A program made the position numbers and the translations under genes. From a virus (Duplodnaviria; Caudoviricetes), in IMG/VR virus record IMGVR_UViG_3300042269_000666, positions 1 through 64,000 of that record: 64,000 nt of DNA. One strand, given 5' to 3'. Each line of letters begins with the position of its first letter. Positions within the stretch are counted from its first letter, which is position 1. Below the pieces are notes generated by a model. The model was not told the origin of the DNA and did no database searches. It worked only from the letters and a program-made list of their open reading frames with translations. Below are positions 34,721 to 57,600 of the stretch, piece after piece.

Positions 34721-34726
34721 TGTCAA
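34721..34726 (-). promoter_or_regulatory. TTGACA block-start motif ahead of tail tube gene
   Basis: TTGACA overlapping the upstream stop codon; one of nine similar sites. Confidence 0.45.
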
Positions 34727-35100
34727 CAAGTGAGAGTTTTCGCTTTTATTTTGAGGTTAGCGCTTACTCCTGTGACATCTTTGCCTTTGTGTGAAGTGGG
34801 ATAAGTAGCTATCGAGCCGATTTTCAGGATAGTCAAATTCTGTGAATAATACGGCAGGGACGCGTTTATTTTCGCGGCAATTCTCAAAGCATCGTCCCGG
34901 TCTTTGTACCGTCCCAGTATTTGTACCGTCAGGATTGGGATTGACGGGAAATTGTCAGGATCACAGGACTCTATGTGTATGCCGACCGCGTCGACTACTT
35001 TAGCGTTCAGGATTCCGCGAAATATGGTTTTATCAACGGTCATCTCAAGCTTTTCAGCAAAGTAACCTATCAATGCATGCTCTAAATCAATAATAGTCAT
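34723..35100 (-). CDS. Probable tail terminator protein
   Basis: Size and TVQILGR..D..ALRIA pattern; precedes tube gene. Confidence 0.6.
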   Translation of the reverse strand: MTIIDLEHALIGYFAEKLEMTVDKTIFRGILNAKVVDAVGIHIESCDPDNFPSIPILTVQILGRYKDRDDALRIAAKINASLPYYSQNLTILKIGSIATYPTSHKGKDVTGVSANLKIKAKTLTC

Positions 35101-35108
35101 GAAACTGT

Positions 35109-35170
35109 ACTCCTTTTGATAATGATGTTTCTTGTCAATATTGACAAACCCTGCTTATCTCAAAAGGAGC
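35109..35170. promoter_or_regulatory. Divergent pair of TTGACA-N15-AAAAGGAG motifs forming palindrome TTGTCAATATTGACAA
   Basis: 35133-35138 (-) and 35141-35146 (+), each 15 nt before AAAAGGAG. Confidence 0.65.
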
Positions 35171-35176
35171 TTTTTT

Positions 35177-37897
35177 ATGTCTGACGGTTTGGACTTAGGT
35201 AGAATCGGTTACGAAACTTATATAAACGATAAGCAGTATGAAAAGACACTACGCAAGATGGAGAATGATGCCGAACGTTCCGGCAAAAGTATAATGAAAT
35301 CGCTTTTCGGTGCGTTGAGTATTTATTCCGGCTATCGTTTCTTCAAGGGATTGGTGCAGTCTGCTTCTGATCTTATAGAAGCAGAAAACAAATTCAGGGT
35401 GGTATTCCAATCAATAGGTGATTCAGCAGAAAAAGCAAGGAAGCGACTGCAAAAGGCTTTCGGGCGTTCAAAACTGGAATCTGCGGAATTACTTGGAAAT
35501 GCAGGCGATATTTTAACTGGCCTTGGATTTAGTGCTGAAGCCGCATTGAAAATGTCATCTCAAGCTGCAGAGCTGTCAATTGATTTAACATCTTTGCAGA
35601 ATTATAAAGGCGGCGCCAAAGGTGCTATGGAAGCAATGACTGCTCTGATGGTAGGAGAAACTGAACGGGCTAAAGCATTAGGTATACTTGTTCGTCAGGA
35701 ATCTGCGGAATTCAAAAATTTAGTCAAGCATTATATGGAAGTTGAAAAGATGACCTTAGAGCAGGCTAAAGCACAAGCCGCTTTAGATATTGCTATCAAA
35801 CAATCAAAAAATGCTATCGGCGATTACGCGAGAACAGCGGAAGAATTTGCCAACTCTTCACGCCGTGCAGGTGAACGAATACAGGATATTGCCTCAAAAC
35901 TGGGAAAGAACCTCATTCCTTTGGCTTCAAAGATAATCCGGTTGATCTCATGGGGGACTGATGTGCTTGGAGATATGAACGGGACACTGGTAAGCTCTAC
36001 AGCATACTTCGGCATATGGATTGCCAGTATGTACGGATTGGAAAAAGTATTCGGCATAATGGGGAAAATTAAAAATGCCGTCAATGAGGCAGCTGTTAAT
36101 GCCGGTTATATGTCTGCGGAAGCTTTAGCCGCAAAGCAGGCAGAGGAATTAAAGGTTGCAGAAAACCTCAAATCAAACGCTATTCGTCGTGCCCAGAATA
36201 AGAAAAGGGCTCTTGATGAAGCCGTTAACTACAAGATGGAAGCAAAGACCGCTTTTAAAGCTGAACGCCAGAAATACGCGGAAGCCAAAAAAGCCGGAAC
36301 TGCAACCTTGGAGCAAAAAGAAAAACTTAAGAATGCGGCTGGCAAATACCGTCAGAGCCTGGCTAGTCTGACCCGTGCAGAAAGGCAATACCGACGCGCC
36401 CAGATAGCGGCAAATATTACTTCTGCCCGTGCAAGCGCAACGCTCAACAGAAATACAATAGCTACAAAAGTTAACGCAACCGCAAAATATGCTCTTGGAC
36501 GTGCCGTTTTATTTACCAAAGCCTGTTTTAAATCTTTGTGGGCCGCAATTGTCGCTAATCCGATTGGGGCGATACTGGCTGTGCTGGGATTGGCTATTTC
36601 CGCAATGAATGCCTGGGGAGATAGCATAAGGCAAACAGCCGCAGAACAAATAGAATTAGCAAAGAACGCCTCTGAGCTTGCAGATAAAAGGCTGGATTCA
36701 GGCAACAAACAACGCTTGGCTGACTTGGATAGTCTTGACAGGCTCAAGCGACTGGCAACCGCAGAACGCCTGAGTAATGATGAGAAAGCAGAAGCGAAAG
36801 AGCTTATTGATGATCTATCAAAACGCTACGGTGATCTTGGAATATCAATTGACAAGACTACAGGAAAATTGAACATTCAGGCCGGGGCATTTGATAAGAT
36901 CAATAAAAAAATGCTTGCTCAGGCTCAAGCTCAACGCAAAGCCGTCATTAAAAAGAAGATGGCTGAAATTGAAGCCCTGAAAGCGGAAAATAAAGCATTG
37001 GGAAGCTGGGGCGCTCAAGGCTTCTTCTGGATGAATTCAGAATCAAATAAAGCCAAGCAGGATGCCAACGCCAAAAGAATTAATGCCCTTTGGGATGAAG
37101 TCGGGGCAATGAAAATGGCTGTCAGAAATGCGACTGCTGTTGATAAAGAAAATGATCAGGAAAGGAAAAATAAAGTAAGACAAGCTAAAAATGCAGCAAC
37201 CAAGAAAAAATATAAAGAATATGAGGAGCAAGAAGCTGAATGGAGAAACAACCGTTTAAGCGACTATGAACGAGAGCTGAAAGCAATAAATGAAATTGTT
37301 GATGCTCAAAAAATGCGTGCGCAAGAACTTTATAGATTGAAAGAATTATCAAAAGAAGACCTTGAAGCCTCTTTAAAACTGGCAGAATCAGAACGTAAAC
37401 GCCTGACTGATAAGCTGAATGCCGAACGCCAAGCGGAAGAAGCCCGTAAACAGGCTCAGAGAGCGGAGTTATCCCGGGACCTTGAGTATAATCGATTAAA
37501 AGCCCAATTCCTTGCAGACGGCAAGCTTGACAGGCAGGAAAATATTTCACTGGCAGAAAAAGAGGTTGAACTACAGAAACAGCGTGTAGCGGAAGCCAAA
37601 AAGGCAGCGGAACAGGCAAAAGCCGAGAATAAGGCACAAACTGAAAATGCTTTGGCTCAAGCTCAGATAGAACTTGGTGAAAAAATGCGTGATCTTAAAG
37701 CCTTGACTGATGCCCCGTTAAAAGCACGGCGAAGCATATCTCAAACTGGCGGTTTTCTGGCAACAAGAGTTTCTCTGATCGGCAATCAAGACCCGGCAAA
37801 AGAAACAGCCAAGAACACCAAAGACATCGTAAAACATGTTAAGAAAACCGAGCAGAATACTAAAAAGATAGCTGAAAAGACTTTGACGTTTGATTAA
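35177..37897 (+). CDS. Tail tape measure protein of prophage 2 (inverted relative to neighbours)
   Basis: Long Ala/Lys helical protein; C-terminus AKETAKNTKDI..TLTFD resembles prophage 1 AERTATATEDI..ELAFE; start set at ATG after AGGAG. Confidence 0.88.
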   Translation: MSDGLDLGRIGYETYINDKQYEKTLRKMENDAERSGKSIMKSLFGALSIYSGYRFFKGLVQSASDLIEAENKFRVVFQSIGDSAEKARKRLQKAFGRSKLESAELLGNAGDILTGLGFSAEAALKMSSQAAELSIDLTSLQNYKGGAKGAMEAMTALMVGETERAKALGILVRQESAEFKNLVKHYMEVEKMTLEQAKAQAALDIAIKQSKNAIGDYARTAEEFANSSRRAGERIQDIASKLGKNLIPLASKIIRLISWGTDVLGDMNGTLVSSTAYFGIWIASMYGLEKVFGIMGKIKNAVNEAAVNAGYMSAEALAAKQAEELKVAENLKSNAIRRAQNKKRALDEAVNYKMEAKTAFKAERQKYAEAKKAGTATLEQKEKLKNAAGKYRQSLASLTRAERQYRRAQIAANITSARASATLNRNTIATKVNATAKYALGRAVLFTKACFKSLWAAIVANPIGAILAVLGLAISAMNAWGDSIRQTAAEQIELAKNASELADKRLDSGNKQRLADLDSLDRLKRLATAERLSNDEKAEAKELIDDLSKRYGDLGISIDKTTGKLNIQAGAFDKINKKMLAQAQAQRKAVIKKKMAEIEALKAENKALGSWGAQGFFWMNSESNKAKQDANAKRINALWDEVGAMKMAVRNATAVDKENDQERKNKVRQAKNAATKKKYKEYEEQEAEWRNNRLSDYERELKAINEIVDAQKMRAQELYRLKELSKEDLEASLKLAESERKRLTDKLNAERQAEEARKQAQRAELSRDLEYNRLKAQFLADGKLDRQENISLAEKEVELQKQRVAEAKKAAEQAKAENKAQTENALAQAQIELGEKMRDLKALTDAPLKARRSISQTGGFLATRVSLIGNQDPAKETAKNTKDIVKHVKKTEQNTKKIAEKTLTFD

Positions 37898-38172
37898 TCA
37901 ATAGAGGTGAAATACGGGCAGGTTTCTTCGCCTGTCCAAATTTCATCTGATATATACTTGAATTTGGGGCAGGAACGATTCACGGGCTGGCGAATATCGC
38001 TATGCTTATAAAGCTTGCAGTCATAACACTGTTTGCAGGAATGACGGCTATCGTCTAAAGACATGCATTCTGCCCCGTCAATGATTTTTATTCTTCCTTT
38101 TATTTCCGGAAGATTTCGGATTGCTTCAAGGTTACGCTCCTGTTCTTCCTTGCTGACTTCATTTAACTTCAT
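37894..38172 (-). CDS. Small Cys-rich protein; candidate partner/immunity gene of upstream MuF-like protein
   Basis: CKQCYDC...CPKF...I.TG...CPY; overlaps upstream stop. Confidence 0.55.
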   Translation of the reverse strand: MKLNEVSKEEQERNLEAIRNLPEIKGRIKIIDGAECMSLDDSRHSCKQCYDCKLYKHSDIRQPVNRSCPKFKYISDEIWTGEETCPYFTSID

Positions 38173-39604
38173 ATTTAACACCTGAATTTTTCCATACTTT
38201 TTTATTAACATGATGCGCAATGGTAGCTTTGAATTTCTTGTATGGAACTTTGTTATTTAGGTATCTTTGCTGTAATTCGTTATAAGTATCATACCACTTG
38301 CCAAGCAAATTCGCAACATCTTTTGCTGATAAATATTGTTCCAGGCTAAGAGAATAGGTGTGCCTTGGCGAAACTATACGCAATTCTTTCGCTCCACTGC
38401 CCAGGAATGTAGCAATATCGTCCATTGAAAAACTGGCATCAACTGGATGATTATGGGTAACAATGTTATTTCTTGCAAAATTTGTCGGGATATTAGGCAC
38501 GGTATTAGTTGTACCCTGTTTAGCCCATACTAATTTGCCTGTTTCAGAATCAAAAATGCCGGCATGTTCAAAATTACCGTTTGCGATTTTTTCCTCAAAA
38601 TCTTTTTGATTATCCGGATAGGTTTCAAATTCCTGCTTGAACTTTTTCATCTTACGGGTTCTTGGAGATTTTAAAGAGCCTTTTTTACGGTATTCGCGCC
38701 ATGCTTCTTTATCATCTTTCTGCTCTTTGCCTTTGCTGTTCAGCCCATTATTAGGCCGTCCTTTTTCGTCAAAATCCTCTCCGGCAATCATCGGATCAAC
38801 AGCAACCATGCGGTGAGTGCAATTCGGGTGAAATAATCCTGATGATCGAGCCGATTCGATAGACGGATATTTGCCAGTACCGCTGATAGAGAGCAAACGC
38901 CCCTCCCAGACAGCACAGGCGGGGCAGGGGTTGCCGGACGTACTGATTGCCACAATATCGTTTTTCTCATCGCTACAGCCGTGCAAATAGGCTTCACGGG
39001 CGTTGTTGTGAAGCACTGTACGGCTTAACATTTCAAAATACGCGTCAGAGTTCCACTTCCTGCCGTCTTTTGCTATGAAAATGAATTTCTCGCCACCATT
39101 CTCATAGAACAGGCGTTTTGACACAGCTACTTGAGTTTCACCAGTCAAGGAAGATTCACGCATAACTCGTGCTGAAATACGCCGCAGGTTATTGATTGCA
39201 GCTGTGGACATCTGCTTTGTTGCCCCGGCAATGTGTGTGAAGTCATCTTCCAGCATGAGTTTCATTGTGTTTTTATTCAGGTTGCCGACTACTTCACTTG
39301 GATTTTCGGCAAGGTCAACGAGTGCTGAATGATAAAAGCTCTGAGCAACATAAGTAATTGCCGCTTTTGCGGTTTTCCGGTACTCCTGTTCAAAATCGGC
39401 GAACATGCCCTGCAGTTCCTCCATAAGCATAACCAGGCGTGGCCCAGTAAATGAAGAACGTTGCTGCAGGACATATTCTTTTATGCGATCCTCAACACGT
39501 TCACGTGCCGCAAGGTAAATTGCGTACATGTCTTTTTCCTTTGCGGAAAGTTCTGTGTAGCCTTTGCTGGCATGGCTGTTGAGGAAAGCACGAATCAGGT
39601 TCAT
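38159..39604 (-). CDS. Minor head morphogenesis protein (MuF/minor capsid 2-like) with C-terminal JAB-like domain
   Basis: CPACAVWEGR...LFHPNCTH; C-terminal THNHP.DASFSMDD. Confidence 0.78.
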   Translation of the reverse strand: MNLIRAFLNSHASKGYTELSAKEKDMYAIYLAARERVEDRIKEYVLQQRSSFTGPRLVMLMEELQGMFADFEQEYRKTAKAAITYVAQSFYHSALVDLAENPSEVVGNLNKNTMKLMLEDDFTHIAGATKQMSTAAINNLRRISARVMRESSLTGETQVAVSKRLFYENGGEKFIFIAKDGRKWNSDAYFEMLSRTVLHNNAREAYLHGCSDEKNDIVAISTSGNPCPACAVWEGRLLSISGTGKYPSIESARSSGLFHPNCTHRMVAVDPMIAGEDFDEKGRPNNGLNSKGKEQKDDKEAWREYRKKGSLKSPRTRKMKKFKQEFETYPDNQKDFEEKIANGNFEHAGIFDSETGKLVWAKQGTTNTVPNIPTNFARNNIVTHNHPVDASFSMDDIATFLGSGAKELRIVSPRHTYSLSLEQYLSAKDVANLLGKWYDTYNELQQRYLNNKVPYKKFKATIAHHVNKKVWKNSGVKYEVK

Positions 39605-39927
39605 ATTCCAATTACTCCAAGCGCGGCTTTAAAAGCAATGGATAAACCAGTAGTTACAGCATTCAGGAGCAGGTTTGAGACTTTCAGCGACAAGATGGCC
39701 TGATGGTCTACTGCAATAGCACGGTAATTGTCAAGGTTTGCCAAATGACGCTTTTTCTCATCTTCGTCATTAGTAGCAAGCATGGCTTTTACTTCGGTTT
39801 CAACTCCTTTGAGGCACTGTTGCAAGAATGGACGGTCTTCTTTTTTGACTTCTTCTATCATTTCAGAAACGTCTTTTTTGAGTGCTCCAACGTATTCATC
39901 CCAATATTGTCCAGCGGTCTTTTCCAT
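39601..39927 (-). CDS. Hypothetical protein
   Basis: GGAGG RBS before ATG 39927; ATGA overlap with next gene. Confidence 0.6.
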   Translation of the reverse strand: MEKTAGQYWDEYVGALKKDVSEMIEEVKKEDRPFLQQCLKGVETEVKAMLATNDEDEKKRHLANLDNYRAIAVDHQAILSLKVSNLLLNAVTTGLSIAFKAALGVIGI

Positions 39928-39928
39928 A

Positions 39929-40411: not shown

Positions 40412-40436
40412 TTTTTTAAATCTCCTCAGTTAATTG

Positions 40437-40841: not shown

Positions 40842-40843
40842 TG

Positions 40844-42448: not shown

Positions 42449-43747
42449 TTAATAGTTTATTTTGACGTGTTCAATAACGGCAGTCCATCTGGTAGATGTG
42501 GTGTTGGCCGGGATTATTTTGATCGATAGTGCATCATTCGTGTCGTCTGCTGAAATCGACCAGGTTGGAGTACCTATATTGGTGTCACCGAACCATGCAA
42601 CAATTGTCTGCATATTTCCTGTAAGACTGGTAGTGCCACCCTCGTTCTTAATGAGTACTTGATAAACGGCAGTGCCGCATGAGCCGTCAGCCTGTTTTCC
42701 CAGCACGGTAATTCTACAGGAATAGGCATCACCGTCTAATAAGGTAAATCTGCAAGAATTACCATCTAAAAATAATTCTGTTAGAGAAGTAGTTGACGTT
42801 TGTTTTCTTGCTTGAAGTTTTCCACTCTGGCAATCACCGTTATTAGCAAAAATACCTGATGAATGTGAAAATTCACAATAATTTGAAGCCTTAGCGTTGT
42901 ATCCGTTTGAAAAAGAAGCAAAACCATCAGCTAAAGTCTCTCTTCCATACGAAAATGAATATAATCCATTAGATTCAGTGTCAAAGCCACCAGCAAATGA
43001 ATAATTACCAGTAGCTATTGTTGTACTACAGCAAGCAAATGAATAACTTCCACTCGCTAAAGTCATATAACCAGAAGAAAATGAACTATCTCCACTAGCC
43101 GTTGTGCTTCTTCCAAATGATATTGAATATTCTCCACTCGCAGTCGAATTAAAGCCACCAGCAAATGAATAATTACCAGTAGCGCCAAAGGTTGTTCCGG
43201 TTGTTGAATATTCTAAACTAACCGACTTAATGCCAGCAGTGCCTCTACCACTTGAAACATTATCTAGTCCATAACCACTATCTTCAATAATTAATTTTCC
43301 ACCACTTGCGCTAGGCAAATTAGTTAATTGCGATCCGTCAACTGCCGGAAGTTTAGCTGAGCTATCTAACTGAACAACGTTATTTGCCGCGGTACCAGTG
43401 TTGAGAATGGCAGCCGTACCGAGTCCCAAGTTAGTACGGGCGGTACTGACATTATTCACGTCTGACAGATTGTTGCTTATAGCCAATGCTGAAACCTGAC
43501 TGGCCGTAACGCCGTGAGGATTAGCCGTGCTGACACTATGGGCAGTGTTATTGCTTACATTTGCAGCATCCGAAGCGGTGAACGCTTGCGTAGCCGTGCC
43601 GCCTATCTTCAAATTACCGGAAGTAAAATCTGCGGTCTGTGTTGTAACTCCCGTTGTATTGTCAAGCATTAATGTTGTGCGCTTGGTTCCTGCGATAGTT
43701 AATGATAAGACAATAATAATTGCAATTGTTGGTATTAGCTTTTTCAT
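42449..43747 (-). CDS. Adhesin/fibre-like protein with signal peptide and YadA-head-like repeats
   Basis: [19 protein letters not shown]; seven 14-aa repeats such as [14 protein letters not shown]; ARTNLGLG. Confidence 0.7.
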
Positions 43748-45738
43748 GCGGTTAAATTCTCCGTTGTAAGTGATCCATCATCGTTAATTGTTATGCGAAA
43801 TCTGGTGCCGGAAGTACTTGTCAATATCAAGCCTTTGCTTGCATCAGTGATTTCAAAATCATCAGAGCCTACTTTGTCAGCTTTGCCGGATACGTCAACA
43901 TATTCACCGGGATCACCTTTGTCTCCCTTATCACCCTTATCTCCTTTATCGCCTCCGGCAAGAACTAATTGCCATGTTCCTGCAATGGCGGTAATATTTT
44001 TCATCGCCATAATGCCGGATATATCTACAACCGTTGAATTGCTGGTGTAGCTGACGGCATTTTGCGACAACTGCCACTGTGTACCGTTCTCATCAGCAAC
44101 CGCGACAATGTTCATAACGGCATTTACATGAAGAATTTTTCCAACTAAATCATCATTAATAAAATCATGCCGTGCACCATGAACTTTTAGCCAGTTGAGA
44201 TAATCTGACTCGGTGCCTGTATTGCCCTGAGAAAGCCACATCTGATATAGGCTTTGCCCGGAAATTCCTTGAGCAAAACGTATGCGTCCACCATTTGATA
44301 CGTCACTTTGACCAAAGTAGATAACGGTGCGAAGATTAGCCCATTCGGTTGTAATCATTACCGGACTATCAGGGTCACCAGCTTTGACGGTTTGCCCGTT
44401 GCCCATTGCGTCATAAACTTCAATCTGAGCTATGGTCTTGGTTCCATCAATTACCAGTGAGCCGCCAAAAACATTGTCTGCGGTAAATTCAATGTCCGGT
44501 ACAACTTCGGCATTTTCGCCACGATCACCCTGATCGCCCTTGTCCCCCTTATCACCTTTCTCGCCTTGTATGCCCTGAATGCCACCAGGAGCAGGTTCAC
44601 TCCAATCCCCGAAAGCATCACTGATTTTCAGATAGATATGATTGTTGTCGGTATCAAGATAGGTAAAGCCACGCTCAGCATCATCATACAGGCTTTTATT
44701 GGCAAGCGTTCCGGCCATATCGATTTTTACGCCATCGCCTTTTTCGCCAGTGTCTCCTTTATCGCCCTGATCCCCTTTATCTCCCTTTGCTCCAGTATCG
44801 CCGGGCAAACCTCTATCACCAGTATCGCCCTTTTCGCCCTGAATACCTTGGAGGCCTTGTATGCCTTGTGGTCCCTGCGCTCCATCTGCCCCAGCTGGGC
44901 CTTGTATAGTAGTAATGTGAACAGGCTCAGACCATACACCACTCTTGAACCAATACATATCACTGGTATCACTGGCAAGATAGCGGTATCCCTCTGCAGG
45001 AGCTTCCGGCATGTCAGCAAGTAAACCTATTTCATCAGGTTCAATATTTTTACCGTCAAGCCCGTATGGAATTAATTGCGGGTCACTGGCAACTCCTGTA
45101 ATGCCATGCCTTACGCGTTGATATACATCAACATTTGCGTTTAAATCAGAGTGCCAGTTTTCTCCGTCTTCGGAAAACTCAAAAATAAGTTTACGTGCAA
45201 TTGCCGCTTCGGTTTCAAGCGCGGTATAATATTCCGGTTGTTCTTCCGGTGTTGGAGGATCACCAGCAATATAAACACAGTTGCGTATTGTTACGCCAAA
45301 CTGCCATGCGAAAGACCTTGCAGGAGGTTCATCATCAGTAAAACCACCGATTTCACCTTTTAGACTGATTGTCTCCTGAGTATTTAGAGTATCACGCATA
45401 ACCGGATAATCAGTATTCGGCATCAGTGCTGAAAGTATAGTTCTTCCATTCTCGTCAGTTCTGACGGAAATATTTTCAAGCTGCAGCATTTTCGGAGGGG
45501 TAGCTTGATCAAAATCCCCGTCAAGTGCATAATAAAAACTGGCAACATCATCAAAAGATGAAATTGGATATACTTCTAGAATTCCGCTGTCAGAATCCAC
45601 TTCGGTTGACCTGACATCAAATTCCAGATTGAGAATAGAACCTATAACGATATCAGGCAGGCTGTCTTTACCGCCGTATTCATCGGTGATTTTAGCAGTC
45701 GAGCCATTTATTTGCAAAATTTTTCTTATCGTCTGCAT
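43744..45738 (-). CDS. Collagen-like tail fibre protein; homolog of 4930..7941
   Basis: GXY tracts; [10 protein letters not shown]...[20 protein letters not shown] nearly identical to prophage 1 copy. Confidence 0.85.
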
Positions 45739-45778
45739 TTATAAACCCTTTGTTTTTGTAATAGAAGAACTTTGTCAA
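45739..45778 (-). promoter_or_regulatory. TTGACA-N15-AAAAA block-start motif
   Basis: TTGACA at 45773-45778, then AAGTTCTTCTATTAC, AAAAACAAAGGG, ATG. Confidence 0.55.
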
Positions 45779-45780: not shown

Positions 45781-46173
45781 TCAAACAGATAGATAAAGCT
45801 TTATGAACTTTTTATCCCGGGCAGAAGCGGCTTCACGCCCACGAGTAAGAAACTTTCTGCCGACTTGAACGTCTGAGCGGTTTTGAGCATCAAGAGAATT
45901 AATCCCCAGGTTGTAATAATCCTCATGCATGCTGAGTACATAATCGCTTGCAGTGCTGTTTACGGGGACACGGATCACAACCGAAGAATCATAAACCTGT
46001 TTTACTATGCCTACTCGCAAAAATCCTTTATCAATTGGAGCTCGCTTACTGCCCTCAAGAACATGATTGTTGCCGATTGCGTTCAGTGTTTTTCGAAGAT
46101 TAACACGGCGATCACGGATAGCTTTATCAATATTTTTTCTGAATTTGTCCATCCCCTCAATAGCCATCAACAC
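45781..46173 (-). CDS. Neck/tail-completion protein (HK97 gp10-like)
   Basis: IEGMDKF..., APIDKGFLR.GI, Y...HE, KFL. Confidence 0.7.
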   Translation of the reverse strand: MLMAIEGMDKFRKNIDKAIRDRRVNLRKTLNAIGNNHVLEGSKRAPIDKGFLRVGIVKQVYDSSVVIRVPVNSTASDYVLSMHEDYYNLGINSLDAQNRSDVQVGRKFLTRGREAASARDKKFIKLYLSV

Positions 46174-46472: not shown

Positions 46473-47940
46473 CTTGAGGAGTCCTTTGACGTGGAAGTTT
46501 AGGTTCGTTGGATACTTCATTGATTTCCTTTAGAACCTTTTGGTAAGTTTCTGGGGAAACCTGATTGAGTTCCGCTAATTTGGCTAAGGCGGCACGTTTG
46601 ACTTCCCGGGCATATTCATCACCGGCATCAAAGCTCGAAAGATTCATCAAGGCCGCAACTGATTTTTCGATATCTTTAACTGAAAAATCATGGTTGTAGG
46701 CAAGCGTAGGAATCTTTATGGAGGAATCCCAGAGGTTTAATAATTCCCATGCCTTGGCTTCGGCCTGCTCCAACTGTATAGCGCGATTTGCTAAACCCTG
46801 CTGAATATTGACCGAATCCCAAGCTTTAGATTCTGCGGTTTGAGCAGATTTGCTGCTGGATTGCAGTGCAAGCCCGACCACATCAAAAAGCTGTTCTTTG
46901 AGATACGTATTTTCTTCACGGATTGTTTTAGTTTCAACACCACCAGGAGATATGTAACGGCAAATGCCTCTCTCCTGTTCAGTTTCCCAAATCGCGGCAC
47001 TTTTGGCTAATTCTTGCGCGAGAGTTAAAGTTGAGGTTGCTGTTGTTTCCCTGCTGGATTCCTCTGTAGTTTCTTCAGTGATTTCAACAGTGCCGCTGGA
47101 TCGGGCAAAGCTTTCCGGCAACACCAGCAGGCCGAATAGTTGCTGAATGATATTCATCTGCGCTTCGGAACCGTTATTGAGGATAGCGTCCGATATCCTG
47201 ACAACGTCTTCAAACCAATGTGCGCCGGAACCCATACCAAAGCCGTCCGCTTCTTCTATCTTTACCAGTGGAACCCGTCCGAGTCCATGAACTGCATTAG
47301 CTGTTTCTTTTATTTCTCCATTGGAATTTTTTTCAAAAAGCCGCCAGTCGCTTCGGGTCCATACACGACGGCATTCAATGCGCTCACGCTCTGAGAAAGG
47401 GGTTTTTTCATCAAGCCGTGTTTCTGAAATTATAGCCCACGCAATTTCACCGTCTGAATCATATGCCCAGTCCCGAACCGCAAACGGTGATAAAACCTGA
47501 CAGTAAGGACGAAGCTTGTGCTTCTTTTTCGTTTCCATATCTACATCATCGACTACTGCCGGCATGTCGACAAGCAGCCAGCTTAAGCCGTAACAATTGA
47601 GAGTAGTTGAGGCCTGTAGCATGACTTCATCAACACGCAAGCCGTGGCGGTCAAAATCTTCCTGTACATCATCGTCCACGCCATCGCGCTTAGGCTTTGA
47701 ACTTAAGAGAAAATGACTGATAAGCCGCGCGATCTTTTTAGGCAAATTGATATAGTAGGCTCGTTTCAGGCGTTCCAGATAAGCCATCTCTAATTCTGCC
47801 ATGTGTCTTATCAGGGCAGTTTTTAAATAACTTGCACCACCAGAGTAAGCCTGGTTAATTCTGATCCAAGTATTTTCATATTTACTCACCAGGGGATGAG
47901 TGCGTTCAAATAGTATATCATTCGGGTTCATTGGCATCAC
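46465..47940 (-). CDS. Portal protein (SPP1 gp6/DUF4055-like)
   Basis: RTHPL..Y...W..I..AY.GG..Y, Y.ERLKRAYY.N, HGLGRVPLV. Confidence 0.88.
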   Translation of the reverse strand: MMPMNPNDILFERTHPLVSKYENTWIRINQAYSGGASYLKTALIRHMAELEMAYLERLKRAYYINLPKKIARLISHFLLSSKPKRDGVDDDVQEDFDRHGLRVDEVMLQASTTLNCYGLSWLLVDMPAVVDDVDMETKKKHKLRPYCQVLSPFAVRDWAYDSDGEIAWAIISETRLDEKTPFSERERIECRRVWTRSDWRLFEKNSNGEIKETANAVHGLGRVPLVKIEEADGFGMGSGAHWFEDVVRISDAILNNGSEAQMNIIQQLFGLLVLPESFARSSGTVEITEETTEESSRETTATSTLTLAQELAKSAAIWETEQERGICRYISPGGVETKTIREENTYLKEQLFDVVGLALQSSSKSAQTAESKAWDSVNIQQGLANRAIQLEQAEAKAWELLNLWDSSIKIPTLAYNHDFSVKDIEKSVAALMNLSSFDAGDEYAREVKRAALAKLAELNQVSPETYQKVLKEINEVSNEPKLPRQRTPQDV

Positions 47941-47975
47941 TCCAATTTGTTTTTATAAGTGGAGCGACGTGTCAA
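47941..47975 (-). promoter_or_regulatory. TTGACA-N15-AAAAA block-start motif ahead of portal
   Basis: TTGACA at 47970-47975, then CGTCGCTCCACTTAT, AAAAACAAATTGGAG. Confidence 0.55.
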
Positions 47976-48005
47976 TACCATTCTCTTTATTACGCTTCCT
48001 ATGTC

Positions 48006-48252
48006 TACGTATGTTATGATGGGGGCGGTCTTAGTCCCCCATCTAATAACAACGTATACGAGAGCGTACGCGATACACATATGTATATATCTATGATATA
48101 TAGTTAAAAGTACTCAATACGATACATACTAGTAGGTAAGGTATCGTGTACGATACCACGTTACTTTGTTAAGTGGTAAGGTATCGTCAACAAACCCTGA
48201 AAAACGTCAAAAAGTAGTGTAAAAACGGTAAAAATAACGTATACGATACCAC
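48006..48252. repeat. Non-coding hairpin + iteron-like region; candidate replication origin or packaging region
   Basis: GATGGGGG/CCCCCATC stem; six CGATAC copies; GGTAAGGTATCGT x2; TACGATACCAC x2; AT-rich tract. Confidence 0.6.
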
Positions 48253-48276: not shown

Positions 48277-48312
48277 TTGACATAGCAGGCTCTTTAAAAA
48301 GGAGTTTTCCAG
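48277..48312 (+). promoter_or_regulatory. TTGACA-N15-AAAGGAG block-start motif
   Basis: TTGACA at 48277-48282. Confidence 0.55.
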
Positions 48313-49143
48313 ATGTCGACTATTGATAAATTATACCATAATCATGGACAGAGCAATGACGCGTACAACAAGGAAACAAATGTTGAAATACCATATTTGG
48401 TGACAGGTGTTGAAAGTGTTCAGGATGCAATTGATGCTCTTGCCGCGTCAGAAGATGTACCTAAATTTCATGGACGTTTGGTTGTAACCGGATATGACTT
48501 TGACGAATTGTCTGCAGAGGGAGCATATCAGATTGTTGTAAAATACGGGTTCTCGGCAACTTCTTCTGAATCATGGTCAAGTTCTGATGATGCGGACAGT
48601 AATCCGGAAGTAACTATTGATATCGGGGCTAATTCCGATACTCGAATGCATTCGCTAAGACGTGTTGCTACAAGTTCCGGCGCTCCTGATTCAATTGAGA
48701 GCAAAACTGCTATCGGCGTAGATGCTGACGGTAATATCAATGGCTGTAAAGTTCTTACCGGTTATCGTACTCGTACAGAAATATTTTATATGCCGTTGAG
48801 ACGCTTGTCTACTAAATACGAGAAAGCCCTTGATCAACTGGTGGGAGCTATCAATAACAAAGCTTTTCGCGGTTATGCTGCTGGTGAAGTACGTTTTGAC
48901 GGTGCGACCTATACTTACAGAGAGGGGCAGGAAGAACCTGTTCGAGTTACTTTCAAATATTCGATTTCAGCCAACATGGAAAAAGTTAAATTCGGCAAAT
49001 GGAAAATGACTAAACGCGGATGGGATTACGCATGGATAAAATACACTACTGACGAAGCGGACGGTGAGCCGGTAGCCGAATATGCTGTGATCGATGAAGT
49101 AAGTACATATGACGACTTTGGAAAATTGGGGATAGGCAGATAA
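48313..49143 (+). CDS. Tail protein; homolog of 2041..2865
   Basis: EIPY.V, F.GY..GEV.F.GA, RGWDYAW, GKLGIGR. Confidence 0.7.
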   Translation: MSTIDKLYHNHGQSNDAYNKETNVEIPYLVTGVESVQDAIDALAASEDVPKFHGRLVVTGYDFDELSAEGAYQIVVKYGFSATSSESWSSSDDADSNPEVTIDIGANSDTRMHSLRRVATSSGAPDSIESKTAIGVDADGNINGCKVLTGYRTRTEIFYMPLRRLSTKYEKALDQLVGAINNKAFRGYAAGEVRFDGATYTYREGQEEPVRVTFKYSISANMEKVKFGKWKMTKRGWDYAWIKYTTDEADGEPVAEYAVIDEVSTYDDFGKLGIGR

Positions 49144-50279: not shown

Positions 50280-51179
50280 ATGCAAAAACCTACTGCCTGG
50301 AGCGACTGGAATGATTTACCGATACTGGCCTTGCCGTCAGTTAAAGGCTACGAGATGTATGAAGCGATCCGCGAACGCATTGAATATGTTTTCCCTGAAA
50401 TGATTGCTGAGGATATGCCGTCCGCTTTGCGTCCACTGCTTACAGATTTTAACCCGAATAGCGATCATAAGGTTATTGAGCGGAATATGCACAAAGCTAT
50501 TACGGAACTTATCCCATGGTACCGGAACTGGACAAGTGACGATGCAAGGCTTTGGAATGAAGCAGATTTACTTGCTGCGCTGGGAGAAGAAAAACGCATA
50601 GAGCCCAACCCTTATTTTTTAAGCGCGAAATGGCTGAAACAGGCATTCAGGATCGTCAATTACCTCCGAAAAAAAGAGGACATCATTTCTATTACTTGGA
50701 TTGATGAAGCCGAACCGGGATACACGGAGGGCAATACTTATGACGAACACAAAGCAATGTTTGAGGATGCAATCGACTTTTTCACGGCAGTTATCCAACC
50801 AGGTGGTGGAAGTGGCGGTGATATTTTTGGTTCTTCTGGCAGGCCGTCAAATGTGCTGTACTATTCCTGTGACCGCGATCCATGCGATTCTATGAACAGC
50901 TTTGTACAGGCATTCAATGCTTTGAAATCGCAGTATACAGCAACAAAATACACGGTCGGTTTGTTTGTGGATTCATCCGGATCAATGAGTTTGCGTACTA
51001 TACAGCCAGCCTATGATAACTTTGTAGCTTATATCAAAGAGTTTTATCCTGATTCACGTCTTGTGGAACGCACTGCCGGCAATGAAGCATGGCTTATATG
51101 GACTAAGGAGTATATAAGCCAGTTGAGATTTAACTTTGAGTTTAAAGAGGAAGAAGAAGCGGAATCACCCGCGAGCTAA
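50280..51179 (+). CDS. VWA/MIDAS-motif tail-associated protein; homolog of 4050..4937
   Basis: GLFVDSSGSMS. Confidence 0.7.
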   Translation: MQKPTAWSDWNDLPILALPSVKGYEMYEAIRERIEYVFPEMIAEDMPSALRPLLTDFNPNSDHKVIERNMHKAITELIPWYRNWTSDDARLWNEADLLAALGEEKRIEPNPYFLSAKWLKQAFRIVNYLRKKEDIISITWIDEAEPGYTEGNTYDEHKAMFEDAIDFFTAVIQPGGGSGGDIFGSSGRPSNVLYYSCDRDPCDSMNSFVQAFNALKSQYTATKYTVGLFVDSSGSMSLRTIQPAYDNFVAYIKEFYPDSRLVERTAGNEAWLIWTKEYISQLRFNFEFKEEEEAESPAS

Positions 51180-52118: not shown

Positions 52119-52134
52119 AACTCACTCCGTGAAT

Positions 52135-52159
52135 AAAAAGGCGGCATATTTCAGCCGCC
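52135..52159 (-). terminator. Intrinsic terminator after major capsid gene
   Basis: GGCGGC-TGAAATAT-GCCGCC-TTTTT on minus strand. Confidence 0.8.
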
Positions 52160-52172
52160 ACGATTATCGGAA

Positions 52173-53360: not shown

Positions 53361-53365
53361 ACTCC

Positions 53366-53956
53366 TTACTCCTTATTTTGGTTGTTGTCGATTTCGGTTT
53401 GTAATTCTATTACTCTTGAGGCCTCACGTTTTGTCAGGTTATCTTTACCCAACAATTCGTTAAGCTCCGCTTCCTGGGTCTTGGTTTTGTCCTCAGGAGT
53501 TTTTTCATTTCCTGAACCGCCACCACCTTTATTTACTTCCGCAGTGAAATATTTCGGCTTATCCTTTTTCAGGTTGTCCATAAAAGATTCGCCGTCTTTT
53601 TCGAGATCAACTTTGTCTTTGCCGACAAGGTATTTGAGGTACTCTGGATCAGTAAACTTATGCTTAGAGGCCAGCTTGCTTACTGCAAGATCAAAATCCT
53701 GTGCGGTCTTGGCAGCCTTGACATCATCATTCTCTTTTTTGAGCTTTTCGTTTTCTTTTTGAAGCTTTTCCACTTCCGAAAGTTTGTCGTTTTCGGCATC
53801 GTCAATTTTCTGCTGAGCTTCTGCAAGCTGTTGAGCAAGTTCTTTTTCCTTGCTGTCATCATGCTTCGGCTCGTTGTATTCCTGCAGAAACTTCTTTTCC
53901 GCGTCAGAAAGCTCTTCACCTTTCAAAACTTTTGCTAGGAGTACTTTGATTTTCAT
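53366..53956 (-). CDS. Scaffolding protein
   Basis: Charged coiled coil, KLSEVEKLQKE, KPKYF, GGGGSG tail. Confidence 0.8.
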   Translation of the reverse strand: MKIKVLLAKVLKGEELSDAEKKFLQEYNEPKHDDSKEKELAQQLAEAQQKIDDAENDKLSEVEKLQKENEKLKKENDDVKAAKTAQDFDLAVSKLASKHKFTDPEYLKYLVGKDKVDLEKDGESFMDNLKKDKPKYFTAEVNKGGGGSGNEKTPEDKTKTQEAELNELLGKDNLTKREASRVIELQTEIDNNQNKE

Positions 53957-53996
53957 ATGCTGGATATCCCTTTTTACATAAGGCTTCCTTTGTCAA
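53957..53996 (-). promoter_or_regulatory. TTGACA-N15-AAAAAGGG block-start motif ahead of scaffold/capsid
   Basis: TTGACA at 53991-53996. Confidence 0.55.
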
Positions 53997-54177
53997 CATT
54001 GAAAAAGACTTGTGGAGTGATAGTGTATGAAAAAGAAAAGGTGAGTATTTATGGATAATGGCTACTGGTAATCAATAAAATGGAACATTTAACCTTTAAT
54101 TATTTATAAAGCTACTTTTGATTTTTCAACACAGAGAATACATAAAATTAAAGCAAAAATAATTAAAAGATAAGAAA

Positions 54178-54915
54178 ATGAATAATCAACAAATACAGGG
54201 TTGTAAGGCGTTAACTGAAAATGTATTAGAGTATTTAGATGAGTTTATTCGCAATGCAATATCAAGAAGTTCAAATATTCAATGTGTCAAAAGCATAGCT
54301 CATGATTTGAATGTAATGAATGAATTTATTGGTCAAGAATCTCCAGATTGGATAAAAAATTTGATAGGGTTATGTGCTCGAGGACAAACAGACCCAAATA
54401 CAACACAAGAAATAATTAAGCTTAGGTCAGCTATTGAGTATTTCTCTTGGGAAGATTTTTATAACGATGATGGAGATATAGACAAATTAGACTATGATAA
54501 AATATTTACCGAAGAAGCCAATAAAAATGGGTTGAATGAGGCTCTTGATCGTTTAGTTGAATGCTTGGAAATAATTAAAAATGAGTCTCAGTTTAATTTT
54601 TCTAAGCAAACACGCATTGATATTGAAACTTTAATAATTGGACTAAAAAAGTCAAAAGGGAAATCAGAATCTTCAATAAAAACATGGGTGGAGTCAGTTT
54701 GGGCACTTATAAAAACTTGTATTCCTCATGCTGATAAAATTGAAGCATTAAACAAATTGCTTTCTGATACTCAACACGCTTATAATGATGTATCTTTTAA
54801 AATAATTGAAGCAAAGAACATGGTTATAGCAAAAATTCAAAATGAATTTTGCAATCAGAAGCTCCTGCCCAAATTTGAAGAGGCTAAGCAAATTGCAAAC
54901 AATAATTCTGAGTAA
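54178..54915 (+). CDS. AT-rich hypothetical protein (moron) opposite to late genes
   Basis: Long clean ORF, very low GC, own upstream AT-rich region. Confidence 0.65.
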   Translation: MNNQQIQGCKALTENVLEYLDEFIRNAISRSSNIQCVKSIAHDLNVMNEFIGQESPDWIKNLIGLCARGQTDPNTTQEIIKLRSAIEYFSWEDFYNDDGDIDKLDYDKIFTEEANKNGLNEALDRLVECLEIIKNESQFNFSKQTRIDIETLIIGLKKSKGKSESSIKTWVESVWALIKTCIPHADKIEALNKLLSDTQHAYNDVSFKIIEAKNMVIAKIQNEFCNQKLLPKFEEAKQIANNNSE

Positions 54916-54918
54916 ATA

Positions 54919-55404
54919 TTAAAAATCACCTTTCAGTAACTTATCCAGGAACTTTTCGCGCTCCTCGAAGCTCATATTCTCAATGAGCTTTTCAGCCATA
55001 GCTACTTCGGTGGCATTCTCAACCTCAGCTTCAAGCTTGTGCTTGTCGCTCCACTTTTCAGGACGGCGGTTAACCAGCCAGAACTTGATCGCGTTCACGT
55101 CCGGTTCAAAGGTTTTAGTCTTGACGGTTTGTTTAACAATTTCACCATCGCCATCGGTTTCCAGATGCCGTTCGCGGACTTCAAAGCCCAAACAACGCTT
55201 AAGCAGGGCGTTCTCAACCTTGGTATCAACCGGAGCTTTCCCGCGCGCGATAGCCTCCAAAAACTCTAGGTGCTTCTTCTGGTAATTGTAGTAAGTTGCG
55301 GTCGATATGCCGAGTTTTTGGGCGATCTGTTCGTCGTTAAGTCCCTCTCTCGCAAACCCTTCCGCAAGTATTGGAAAGTTTTCGTTATATTTGCCTTTGC
55401 TCAA
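54919..55404 (-). CDS. terS: Terminase small subunit (HTH type)
   Basis: EG.AREGL.DEQIAQKLGIS..TYYNY.KKH.EF, VENALLKRC.G, PDVNAIKFWL.NRRPEKW. Confidence 0.8.
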   Translation of the reverse strand: MSKGKYNENFPILAEGFAREGLNDEQIAQKLGISTATYYNYQKKHLEFLEAIARGKAPVDTKVENALLKRCLGFEVRERHLETDGDGEIVKQTVKTKTFEPDVNAIKFWLVNRRPEKWSDKHKLEAEVENATEVAMAEKLIENMSFEEREKFLDKLLKGDF

Positions 55405-55907
55405 AATAGTTTCTCCTGAACCGCATCACCCTCTACAAACTGTTTCTTGTATCTGTTTCTTGCAGCGGTAATTTTCGACAATGTCAGGCAGAAGATACTT
55501 TTCAGTTCCGGATGATTTCTTACCGCAAATAAAAGGGCTGTATTAATGCGCTGTCGAGATACGCCTCGCTCCCTTGCCATTTCAGCCTGTGTAATATTCG
55601 GATTGCGAACCAAGGCACTAAGGAGCGAGAGCGTATTATCATCAAGAGAAAGTATGTAATTCAGAACTTCTGACAAATTCTCGTAATTATCACTTTTACC
55701 GATTTTATCACACTCGTTGCTTTTACCTGCAACACGAAAAGAGTTCTTGTCGTAATCTACTGCATTACGAACTCTGTTGGCGTTATCAGGGTTGGGACTG
55801 CTGGTCACATATTCGCACGAGTCCCAGTACTCACAAACATTTTTGCAGGATTGGTCGAAGTGTCCGAAACATTCACCTGCGGTTTTTTCGTAGTTTCGTT
55901 CTGTCAT
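55401..55907 (-). CDS. Cys-cluster + HTH protein; candidate late transcription regulator
   Basis: CFGHFDQSCKNVCEYWDSC; NPNITQAEMARERGVSRQRINTAL; start set at ATG 55907. Confidence 0.6.
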   Translation of the reverse strand: MTERNYEKTAGECFGHFDQSCKNVCEYWDSCEYVTSSPNPDNANRVRNAVDYDKNSFRVAGKSNECDKIGKSDNYENLSEVLNYILSLDDNTLSLLSALVRNPNITQAEMARERGVSRQRINTALLFAVRNHPELKSIFCLTLSKITAARNRYKKQFVEGDAVQEKLF

Positions 55908-55946
55908 TTTTTTACTGCACCCTTTTATTTTTCGGCAAAGTGTCAA
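55908..55946 (-). promoter_or_regulatory. TTGACA-N15-AAAGGG block-start motif
   Basis: TTGACA at 55941-55946. Confidence 0.5.
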
Positions 55947-55955
55947 CACAGCCAA

Positions 55956-56969
55956 TCAGGTCTTTTCACTAAGATTGTCAATAGCGTTTTTGTCACGAGT
56001 AAAAATATCCATTATCTCGGCGAAGCTCTTGCTGTTTATGACACGTCCCCCAATGGTGTTTTGCATCAGAGTCCTGAAACATGCAGATGAATTTTCTTTC
56101 ATGGCCTTTGTGTACTTGAAGTTTTCATGATCATAAAGAAAATGATTCAGATTAGCCTTGTTGGTTGTGAACCCGGGAACGCCCTCAACACCACAGCAAC
56201 AAAGGGAATCGCCCATATTCCGTAACCTGTTTTCGCCTGAAAAGAATTTCATGCCAAGGTCATGGGCCGTCTGCCTGATCTGTACGAAGTCCGCTTTCAG
56301 CTTTTCAACAGGATAGACGTAATCGGCGCCGCTTTTTATCATGCCCTTGCGCTTCTGGAAATACTTGATCCCCTCCACAATAATGCCATATACTCCGGCT
56401 TCTTTGTACCGTGGCAAATTACTGATAATATCATTCTTTACCTCACGTACATACGGCTGTATCCTGATAATAAGCCTTTTGCAGTGTTGAGAAATTACCG
56501 CAATATCCTTAAGCCGTTGTTCAAAGGTCGGGGCACCTGGTTCAATAACATCGAACTTCGGAGATATCAGAGATACTTGCACAACGGCATTGCATTGTTT
56601 CAGTGAGTTCAGATACTCAGGCTGTACGAGGCAGGTTGTGCCCTTGGTCGATACAATAAAAGGATATTTCGTTTCCGCGAATACTTTCAGGCACTGCAAA
56701 GAGCTTTTAAATTTGTTCTCTATAGGCTGAAAAGGGTCAGACATACCGCCCCAATGCAACGGTATATCCCAGTCGCACCAACGCGTTTCAGTTGTGCGCT
56801 TTCCGTCAATGAACCTTTTTAGCGCGGTGGCTGATTCATCGAGCTTAATATTTGATATATCAGTCTTTCGGGTCACAAAACAATATTTGCACCCGTGCGA
56901 GCAACCGGAATAATTATCAAACCTGATCGGCAGGTCGCATAAAATAATCTGACTTCCACACTTTGGCAT
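55956..56969 (-). CDS. Radical SAM protein (spore photoproduct lyase-like)
   Basis: CSHGCKYC (CxxxCxxC), GGMSDPFQP.E, TKG. Confidence 0.85.
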   Translation of the reverse strand: MPKCGSQIILCDLPIRFDNYSGCSHGCKYCFVTRKTDISNIKLDESATALKRFIDGKRTTETRWCDWDIPLHWGGMSDPFQPIENKFKSSLQCLKVFAETKYPFIVSTKGTTCLVQPEYLNSLKQCNAVVQVSLISPKFDVIEPGAPTFEQRLKDIAVISQHCKRLIIRIQPYVREVKNDIISNLPRYKEAGVYGIIVEGIKYFQKRKGMIKSGADYVYPVEKLKADFVQIRQTAHDLGMKFFSGENRLRNMGDSLCCCGVEGVPGFTTNKANLNHFLYDHENFKYTKAMKENSSACFRTLMQNTIGGRVINSKSFAEIMDIFTRDKNAIDNLSEKT

Positions 56970-57553
56970 TATGCATCCCCCTCACAAAGCTTGATAATCT
57001 GTTCAACGACTGCCTCCTTGCCGTATTCCTTGATGTACTTATCAATTTCCTCTTTTTTGCTTTTGGGAAAGATAAGAGTGACCGCAAAGGAATCAGAATC
57101 AGCGTTTATGGAGTTCTGGAAGTTGTTTTCCAGCAAATCATCAAGAATGCCGTCCGTTCGTTCAAAGGTTTCAATTTCCTCGTCAGAAAATCCGGTTGCA
57201 TCAACAAGGGAGCCCATGCCGGCAAGCAGCTCGGCAACTTTCTCATCAGAAAAAACAGAAAGATCACTGGTTTTGTTGTCTGCCAGTGCCAGTGCTTTGC
57301 GCTTGTCGTCAGCGGTCTTTAAATCGGTTCGCTTGATGGCGATCAATTCAGTCCCGTCCGATTCGATAACGCGAACAGGCAGCCCTAAGGACTGTGCCTG
57401 TTCATATACCCCGTTTCCGGCTATCAGCATGTTTTCAGAGTCAACCAGCACTGAACGTCCAGTGCCCAGCTCTTCGAGACTGCTTTTTATTGCGTTCTTG
57501 TTGTGATCGTCATGTATGCGAGCATTTTGATTGTCAAAAACAATATCATTCAT
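56969..57553 (-). CDS. ParB/Srx-like N-terminal domain protein
   Basis: NARIH...AIKSSLEELG.GRSVLVD..NMLIAG, ALALADNK. Confidence 0.75.
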   Translation of the reverse strand: MNDIVFDNQNARIHDDHNKNAIKSSLEELGTGRSVLVDSENMLIAGNGVYEQAQSLGLPVRVIESDGTELIAIKRTDLKTADDKRKALALADNKTSDLSVFSDEKVAELLAGMGSLVDATGFSDEEIETFERTDGILDDLLENNFQNSINADSDSFAVTLIFPKSKKEEIDKYIKEYGKEAVVEQIIKLCEGDA

Positions 57554-57600
57554 CGTAAAACCTTATAAGTTGTAAATCTATTATGTGTCCGTCCTGTCAA
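57554..57600 (-). promoter_or_regulatory. TTGACA block-start motif ahead of ParB gene
   Basis: TTGACA at 57595-57600 followed by CATAAT after 9 nt. Confidence 0.45.

Follow-up and report, generated by a model that had tools for sequence, protein, structure and literature searches.

We describe a short sequence element, TTGACA followed after 15 nt by a run of A (TTGACA-N15-AAA), that lies directly upstream of late genes in a prophage. The prophage is contained in part in a 64-kb stretch of DNA (the window; positions 1 to 64,000 of the 76.5-kb virus record IMGVR_UViG_3300042269_000666). The element is enriched in the window, is conserved in a family of related prophages, is distinct from the canonical promoters of the same genomes, is associated with hairpins, and co-occurs with a gene for a small helix-turn-helix (HTH) protein. 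With moderate confidence, we favor the view that the motif is a compact, orientation-specific and phage-specific promoter/insulator cassette for late genes, common to a family of temperate phages of Lentisphaerota (Victivallales). We infer its promoter activity, its start site and the identity of its reader from sequence comparisons.

Prophage, host and relatives

The prophage that carries the motif (prophage 2) extends from an integrase gene at 30406 to a pair of genes, for a CI-like repressor and Ant, at 73.9–75.6 kb of the contig. Its late genes lie between 31.7 and 58 kb. The early genes, on the minus strand, encode a Sak4-like annealing protein, a helicase, a polymerase processivity (clamp) factor, methylases, a primase and RusA. 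Every homologue of the portal protein at ~50% identity is from Victivallales/Lentisphaerota. Hence, the host belongs to Lentisphaerota, a phylum of the Planctomycetes-Verrucomicrobia-Chlamydiae (PVC) group.

We retrieved 80 related loci, 77 of which have sufficient sequence upstream of the portal gene, and we sampled 301 Lentisphaerota genomes for protein co-occurrence. A scan of metagenomes yielded two close relatives, L102 and L103, with 71–75% nucleotide identity to the window, and portal homologues were found on contigs P0002 (82% identity) and P0004 (58% identity). A search of IMG/VR with the portal or HTH protein found no close relatives, and megablast against phage sequences in GenBank returned nothing beyond a 40-nt chance match.

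The spaced motif is enriched upstream of late genes

A sequence-only reading of the window had listed nine TTGACA hexamers just upstream of genes, at 34721(−), 35133(−), 35141(+), 45773(−), 47970(−), 48277(+), 53991(−), 55941(−) and 57595(−), and all nine are found at these positions and on these strands. It had described the hexamer as usually preceded by TA or TG, which is the case for eight (four of each); the ninth is preceded by GG. At seven of the nine, all except 34721(−) and 57595(−), a 15-nt spacer is followed by a run of A that leads into AAAGGAG, AAAAAC or AAAGGG, as had been reported. The near-match TTGAGA-N15-AAAGGAG at 60400(−) is also present.

Bare TTGACA is not enriched in the window (48 occurrences; 39.2 ± 5.7 expected). 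TTGACA-N15-AAA occurs seven times (1.26 ± 1.1 expected), a count that was reached by none of 100 dinucleotide shuffles, and each of the seven sites is directly upstream of a prophage 2 late gene. The hexamer lies 25–45 nt upstream, on the coding strand, of 8 of 40 prophage 2 genes, as compared with 0.315 expected (Poisson P = 1.8e-9). Moreover, 10 of the 34 hexamers between 30 and 64 kb are not fully coding, in a stretch that is only 5.7% intergenic (P = 1.4e-5). All motif sites are oriented toward the downstream gene, and the window ATGs are 30–34 nt past the hexamer. The motif is restricted to the late region of prophage 2; no such site is found at a gene start in prophage 1 (1–30 kb), in agreement with the sequence-only reading.

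Conservation in related prophages

Among the Victivallales/Lentisphaerota prophage loci with sufficient sequence upstream of the portal gene, 44 of 77 have an exact TTGACA within 130 nt of that gene. A purine is found exactly 15 nt past the hexamer at 40 of these 44 sites, and at 29 of them the purine is A. Nine further portal loci carry TTGACG or TTGACC in its place, and these share the flank and the A. There are several sites per prophage in relatives, before the genes for portal, terS, scaffold, major tail, terL and the HTH protein. The motif is constant over phages with ~50% portal identity and hosts of 33–61% GC.

A matrix built from 94 sites has T or G at −2, a purine at −1 (85%), the hexamer, A at +1 (60%), a spacer that is T-rich at its end, A at the first position past the spacer (N15+1; 62%, with C at 5%), and an A/C-rich stretch thereafter. 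When the window sites are left out, A is found at N15+1 in 34 of 60 sites, against a background of 35% (P = 6.5e-4). With a matrix trained on relatives only, the seven window sites rank at the top of the contig, scoring 14.6–19.3 against a shuffle maximum of ~13.9; all scores given for individual sites are from this matrix. The two remaining window hexamers are weak, with 34721 scoring 14.1, close to the shuffle maximum, and 57595 scoring 10.8, below it.

The sequence-only reading had counted the ribosome binding site as part of the motif. This did not hold in the family, where only the hexamer, the purine flank and the A at N15+1 are fixed and the Shine-Dalgarno (SD) sequence floats, being found 15–45 nt past the hexamer in relatives. 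The sequence of the spacer is not conserved across the family, and the distance from hexamer to ATG is ~26–60 nt in relatives. The window phage has the shortest leaders in the family, which is why its SD sequences come directly after the A. In L102 and L103, the hexamer, the 15-nt spacing and the A are kept at three sites, and the surrounding intergenic DNA diverges.

Related elements are carried by the cultured strains WC36 (G002) and zth2 (G001). WC36 has a divergent pair of cassettes at G002:C1:1252021-1252106 and further sites at 1238813, 1239863 and 1623983, and the element is also present in Victivallis vadensis DSM 14823 (L056, at 9918). In a complete Lentisphaeria genome, we observed four near-identical cassettes of the form TTGACA-CCTCCCGATCtggaaaagGTCGGGAGG-TTTTTTC-ATG (G003:C1:4265040-4266633 and 1994891). 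Three of the four are in tandem at a spacing of ~790 nt, with a small gene after each, and they are nested in hairpins.

The motif differs from canonical promoters

Canonical promoters are present in the same genomes: for intergenic hexamers, TTGACA-N17-TAnnnT is apparent as a peak of TAnnnT at spacer 17 (21 vs. ~2 for background). Judged by their sequence, the motif sites are not canonical σ70 promoters. TAnnnT at 16–18 nt is absent from the eight intergenic TTGACA sites counted in the contig, five of which are N15-AAA sites, and from 20 N15-AAA sites of relatives; the remaining window sites, read by eye, also lack it. At the position of a −10 box, the motif sites have AAGGAG, CCAAAC, CCCCCC and similar sequences. 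That the SD sequence sits where the −10 box should be, and that the sites are therefore unlike normal σ70 promoters, had been noted in the sequence-only reading and is borne out by these counts.

The two classes of site differ in two further respects. At −1, the base is G in 41% of motif sites and 14% of canonical sites, and C in 12% and 43%, respectively. The SD sequence starts 15–36 nt past the hexamer in the N15-A class, with none at 5–14 nt, and at least 28 nt past the hexamer in the canonical class, as a transcription start at about +30 would predict. At ~24 family sites, as well as in the window, the SD sequence starts only 15–27 nt past the hexamer. If these SD sequences are used, RNA would have to begin no more than ~15 nt past the hexamer.

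Three divergent intergenic regions in the window, one of only 76 nt, need promoters. They hold no other conserved candidate, and canonical promoter-like matches are not enriched in them. We found no gene for a phage RNA polymerase in the 76.5-kb contig. Hence, transcription must rely on the host enzyme, presumably aided by a phage factor.

Several other classes of promoter and binding site were considered and rejected. A promoter for a single-subunit phage RNA polymerase is at odds with the lack of a polymerase gene and with the unconserved spacer. The matrix has no GG (−24)/GC (−12) pair 10 nt apart, as tested for σ54, and the defining bases of σ54, σ28, σE/extracytoplasmic function (ECF) promoters, the MotA box, FNR/CRP half-sites and IHF sites are absent. 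A hidden −10 box in the spacer at 9–14 nt (TTAT, TATAAA) varies in position (8–11 nt) and is absent in relatives. A −35 box provided by a partner hexamer (TTGTCA-N17-CATTAT) works at one palindromic site only, and a canonical promoter upstream of the portal cassette (TAGACA-N16-GAGAAT) has a −10 box that is not kept in L102.

Hairpins at the motif

At 11 of 42 family sites, the spacer and the SD sequence form a stable hairpin (z −2 to −5.9) that has the conserved A in its loop, often with a T-run between the hairpin and the ATG. Further hairpin-bearing copies were found in whole genomes, and Rfam identified no known RNA family in the window. This arrangement points to a transcription start at about the conserved A, since the A is in the loop and the SD sequence would be usable only by a transcript begun inside the hairpin.

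A candidate reader of the motif

The gene directly before terS, at 55401..55907 (−), encodes a 168-aa protein that we refer to as Cys4-HTH. Its N-terminus has a C-x7-C-x3-C-x5-C cluster (C-x2-C-x5-C in most relatives), and its C-terminus has a helix-turn-helix in which the recognition helix, SRQ...HRK, is almost invariant in the family alignment. Matches in Pfam are to HTH_24 and MarR_2, with Sigma70_r4_2 found in one member only (0.059). The likeness of Cys4-HTH to sigma region 4, KorA and YlxM is weak and suggestive only; an hhalign comparison with host sigma region 4.2 (P 0.0096) and Foldseek matches to sigma A chains (E ~2) were both below significance. Structure prediction from the single sequence gave a predicted local distance difference test (pLDDT) value of 40. 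With an alignment, the C-terminal domain was predicted confidently, and a Foldseek search with this alignment-based model gave no significant match.

Members of the Cys4-HTH family are found in 47 of the 301 Lentisphaerota genomes, including each of the 42 with this portal family (Fisher P = 3e-46). The Cys4-HTH gene has its own cassette both in the window and in L022. In some relatives, the gene is preceded by an AT-rich region with a canonical-looking promoter (L023, TTGCTT...TGaTATAAT), which would fit a regulatory cascade. We consider it plausible that Cys4-HTH reads the motif, and it is the best candidate for this role. In zth2, a compact cassette, TTGACA-N15-AAAGGAG, is preceded at a distance of ~1 kb by a 163-aa open frame that matches Sigma70_r4 (G001:C1:2893208-2894344).

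Motif sites and the order of late genes

In relatives, the late genes are colinear on one strand, in the order terS, portal, scaffold, major capsid, MuF, neck, tail, tape measure. The late genes of the window form blocks in both orientations: winged HTH-terS; one plus-strand gene; scaffold-capsid; three plus-strand genes; portal-neck-fibres-MuF; tape measure (plus strand); and tail-terL. The shuffling of late-gene blocks in the window is real, since genes that are colinear in relatives sit here in blocks of both orientations. Every late block at which the direction changes (B, C, D, E and F) is headed by the motif, the sole exception being the AT-rich gene 54178–54915. The description of the motif as block-leading in the sequence-only reading is apt for blocks B–F; it does not fit 45773 and 57595, which are between co-directional genes. 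The same reading had taken the shuffled blocks to be motif-led units, autonomous and hence free to be shuffled. The same element precedes the same genes in colinear relatives, which upholds the motif-led units; that the motif permits shuffling is interpretation.

Block B, which contains tail genes and terL, is led by a cassette, TTGACA-N15-AAAAGGAG, at 35115..35138 (−), upstream of a gene for a 125-aa protein (34723–35100; score 16.4). Back to back with it, at 35141..35164 (+), is the cassette of the tape-measure gene (35177–37897, phrog_339; score 17.7). The hexamers of these two cassettes form a palindrome, TTGTCAATATTGACAA, in a divergent intergenic region of 76 nt. A palindromic dimer operator at 35132–35147 was rejected: the palindrome consists of two back-to-back cassettes, the corresponding hexamers of L026 are separated by 5 nt instead of 2 nt, and the family matrix shows no conservation of the left half.

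The highest-scoring cassette (19.3), at 45755..45778 (−), is in the 42-nt gap between a neck gene (45781–46173) and a fibre gene (43744–45738), and its hexamer, N15 spacing and A are kept in L103. The portal gene (phrog_145) is preceded by a cassette at 47952..47975 (−), in which the spacer sequence CTCCA pairs with the SD sequence TGGAG (z −2.1). This cassette is kept in L102, where a change from G·U to A-U preserves the stem. Block E, on the plus strand, is led by a cassette at 48277..48300 (+), upstream of 48313–49143 (score 17.1), and L102 has TTGACT-N15-AAAAGGAG at the equivalent position. The scaffold/major capsid block, F, is led by a cassette at 53973..53996 (−), upstream of the scaffold gene (53366–53956); relatives L022 and L072 also have a cassette before the scaffold gene. 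Lastly, a cassette at 55923..55946 (−) precedes the Cys4-HTH gene, which is followed by terS (score 14.6), and L022 has TTGACA before the homologue of the Cys4-HTH gene.

There are three weaker variants. At 57577..57600 (−), TTGACA-N15-AGA lies upstream of a ParB-like gene (56969–57553; score 10.8), with the hexamer inside the 3ʹ end of the upstream gene. At 34703..34726 (−), where TAG comes after N15, the hexamer shares bases with the stop codon of 34723–35100 and is 62 nt from the ATG of a major-tail-like gene (34170–34658; score 14.1); a cassette is found at the corresponding junction of L022 (at 16804). The one-mismatch variant, TTGAGA-N15-AAAGGAG, is at 60382..60405 (−), upstream of the RusA gene (60386–60775; score 14.0).

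Discussion

How might the motif function? We propose that the core of the cassette consists of (T/G)(G/A)TTGACA(A), a 15-nt spacer that is T-rich at its 3ʹ end, the A, an A/C-rich leader, the SD sequence and ATG. The A after the spacer would be at or next to the transcription start, and the hexamer would be a −35-type box read by the host RNA polymerase together with a phage factor. Such a factor would be needed because the −10 box is absent and the SD sequence occupies its position, ruling out ordinary σ70; Cys4-HTH may be this factor. In many family members, the spacer would act as the 5ʹ arm and the SD sequence as the 3ʹ arm of a hairpin, often with a T-run after it. Transcripts that read through from upstream would be terminated, or their SD sequence would be sequestered, and transcripts begun in the loop would have a free SD sequence. 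Each unit would be insulated and self-sufficient, because only transcripts started in the loop have a free SD sequence, and this fits with the differing orders and orientations of units in this phage. The sequence-only reading is supported in part, with a phage-specific late promoter as the best reading. More tentatively, and with some doubt on our part, the cassettes might represent a new class of promoter, in which a small Cys4/sigma-region-4-like HTH protein redirects the host polymerase to start ~15 nt past TTGACA, with no −10 box, inside a terminator/anti-SD hairpin that leaves each late unit insulated and portable. They would then supply the first promoter grammar described for phages in the PVC phylum Lentisphaerota.

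Several observations weigh against a late promoter of this kind. We know of no bacterial holoenzyme that recognizes a −35-type hexamer placed at about −21 to −16 when there is no −10 box. Strong hairpins are limited to roughly one in four family sites, and folding is weak at most sites of the window. A directly after the hexamer is common to the motif and canonical classes, which is compatible with the same σ70 region 4 reading both, and the 30–34 nt from hexamer to ATG in the window are also expected of near-leaderless σ70 transcripts. The likeness of Cys4-HTH to sigma region 4 is below significance (E 0.06 for a PDB profile, E ~1 for Foldseek and 0.80 for Atlas), and its co-occurrence with the portal family shows only membership in the same element family, not function. 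Furthermore, in two complete genomes, G001 and G002, a distance of 190–370 kb separates the HTH gene from the portal locus, and in G011 the two are ~900 kb apart on one contig.

What else could the motif be? The sites could be ordinary host σ70 promoters with a degenerate −10 box, at which transcription starts ~29–31 nt past the hexamer to give leaderless or near-leaderless mRNAs, and the SD sequences serve read-through transcripts only. The hexamer is a perfect −35 consensus, the host uses TTGACA-N17-TAnnnT, the distance to the window ATGs is suitable, several portal promoters have an SD sequence that starts at offset 29–30, and A follows the hexamer in both classes. Nonetheless, no site has a hexamer with A at position 2 and T at position 6 at a spacer of 16–18, and the SD sequences of the ~24 family sites whose sole SD is at 15–27 nt would be untranscribed. 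Such promoters also leave the A at N15+1 without a role, and the flank at −1 is unlike that of canonical sites. We consider this explanation unlikely. Chance and base composition could also bring −35-like hexamers and A-rich SD regions together upstream of genes: bare TTGACA is not enriched in the window, and A-rich sequence is common before SD sequences. This is scarcely credible and is effectively refuted by the shuffles (0 of 100), the Poisson test (P = 1.8e-9), the relatives-only matrix and the conservation in relatives.

An explanation that we also regard as improbable is that the motif binds a protein without initiating transcription, as a stoperator-like road-block or silencer, or acts in RNA as a translational operator or processing site before the SD sequence. 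Like the stoperators of cluster A mycobacteriophages, which match the early-promoter operator and are immunity-specific (L5 gp71; PMC9283540), the motif is short, asymmetric, found in many intergenic gaps and oriented with transcription. Moreover, 45773 and 57595 are between co-directional genes, pairing of spacer and SD sequence could act in translation, and a DNA-binding HTH protein co-occurs with the element. In contrast to stoperators, the motif is missing from the immunity region and is constant over distant phages: TTGACA/TGTCAA does not occur between the Ant and CI-like genes (L101 11540-11960), where a different repeat is found, and a repressor-specific site is not expected to be identical at ~50% portal identity in hosts of 33–61% GC. 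In addition, promoters are required at the divergent junctions, where the motif is the only conserved candidate, and the presence of T-runs and terminator-like hairpins implies that transcription must begin anew at the sites. The repeat in the immunity region, AAAAATGAGT(A/T), is present in two copies (L101 11796-11868; contig 74.8 kb), which are likely repressor operators.

The last explanation that we weighed, and a very improbable one, is that the motifs are mainly substrates for recombination in module shuffling, with a secondary role as promoters. It would account for late blocks that are in both orientations in the window, are colinear in relatives, and carry the motif at their ends. A precedent is provided by the promoter early stem-loop (PeSL) cassettes of T4-type phages, which are short repeats composed of stem-loop or terminator, promoter, SD sequence and start codon, and which are found at module boundaries in shuffled genomes (PMC2839356, PMC4122927). 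However, the ~10 nt shared between copies of our motif are too short for homologous recombination, and in PeSLs the stem-loop precedes the −35 box of a canonical N17 early promoter (PMC4122927), whereas the hairpin described here, when present, follows the hexamer and takes in the SD sequence, and the genes are late. Junction variants at the motif, which the sequence-only reading had proposed to look for, were not found in L102 or L103. These two, the only close relatives found and compared for PeSL-type insertions, deletions or swaps bounded by cassettes, are colinear with the window; distant relatives differ in the order of units.

The late promoter that we favor can be compared with other known elements. 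It shares with canonical σ70 promoters (TTGACA-N17-TATAAT) an identical −35-type hexamer, a location upstream in the direction of transcription, and frequent placement after a terminator. It differs in having no −10 box at 16–18 nt, where there is an SD sequence or an A/C-rich leader, in its conserved A at N15+1, and in the base before the hexamer, which is a purine here and C or A in canonical promoters. T4 middle promoters with a MotA box, and late promoters that depend on RinA, ArpU, Alt or Ogr, keep the σ70 −10 box and usually have a poor −35 box. Like these activator- or appropriation-dependent promoters, the proposed promoter would be phage-timed, has an upstream box at a non-standard distance, and would be read with the aid of a small phage DNA-binding protein encoded near terS; unlike them, it has a perfect −35-type box and lacks the −10 box. 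The start-associated sequence (SAS) and extended SAS (ESAS) of cluster K mycobacteriophages are conserved motifs just upstream of some start codons that include the SD sequence and are fixed relative to the start codon. Our motif is likewise conserved immediately upstream of a subset of start codons, but its fixed distance is that from hexamer to A, and in relatives the SD sequence and ATG float.

A literature search found no paper on promoters in phages of Lentisphaerota. If our proposal is correct, the host polymerase would be recruited in a geometry unlike that of any described holoenzyme. The motif would also provide a simple sequence marker for late operons in Lentisphaerota prophages, and insulated promoter/terminator modules of this type may explain the scrambled order of virion genes. 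Strand-specific RNA-seq data have been published for induced cultures of WC36 and zth2, those of WC36 with and without laminarin (PMC11361711). In WC36, genes annotated as terL, minor capsid protein and portal increased 15- to 68-fold (PMC11361711). These genes may belong to the element described here, since their locus-tag numbers are consistent with its position, the mapping being inferred from locus-tag order.

Other features of the prophages

The one late gene without a cassette where direction changes, 54178–54915 (+), is between terS and the scaffold gene. It encodes a 245-aa protein with no family match, lies in a stretch of 37.5% GC, and has an AT-rich upstream region with a weak SD sequence. 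It resembles a moron placed between two late units. The terL gene (32094–33503) is at the integrase end of the prophage, ~21 kb from terS (54919–55404) and ~13 kb from the portal gene. In relative L026, terL is likewise apart from the portal gene, and it is served by a separate cassette that has a strong hairpin. The probable start of the portal gene is the ATG at 47931, 8 nt past GGAG, rather than the GTG at 47940 given in the open reading frame listing; the ATG is conserved in L102, where an in-frame stop codon comes after the GTG.

A block at 47985–48090 (−), ~100 nt upstream of the portal cassette, is near-identical in the 75%-identical relative L102 (2790–2880). Its fold is a long and imperfect hairpin centered on GATGGGGG...CCCCCATC (−39.6 kcal/mol, z −4.1). 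Between the block and the portal cassette there is a 22-nt indel, so the block looks like an independent element, perhaps a pac site, an origin or a small RNA.

Two parts of prophage 1 (window 3401–4909 and 5875–7553) have 68–74% similarity at the DNA level to homologues of prophage 2 genes; hence, the two prophages share fibre or accessory modules. The L102 counterpart of 50280–51179 also matches 4057–4909 of the window, and the fibre gene of L103 also matches 5875–6787, 7110–7274 and 7447–7553.

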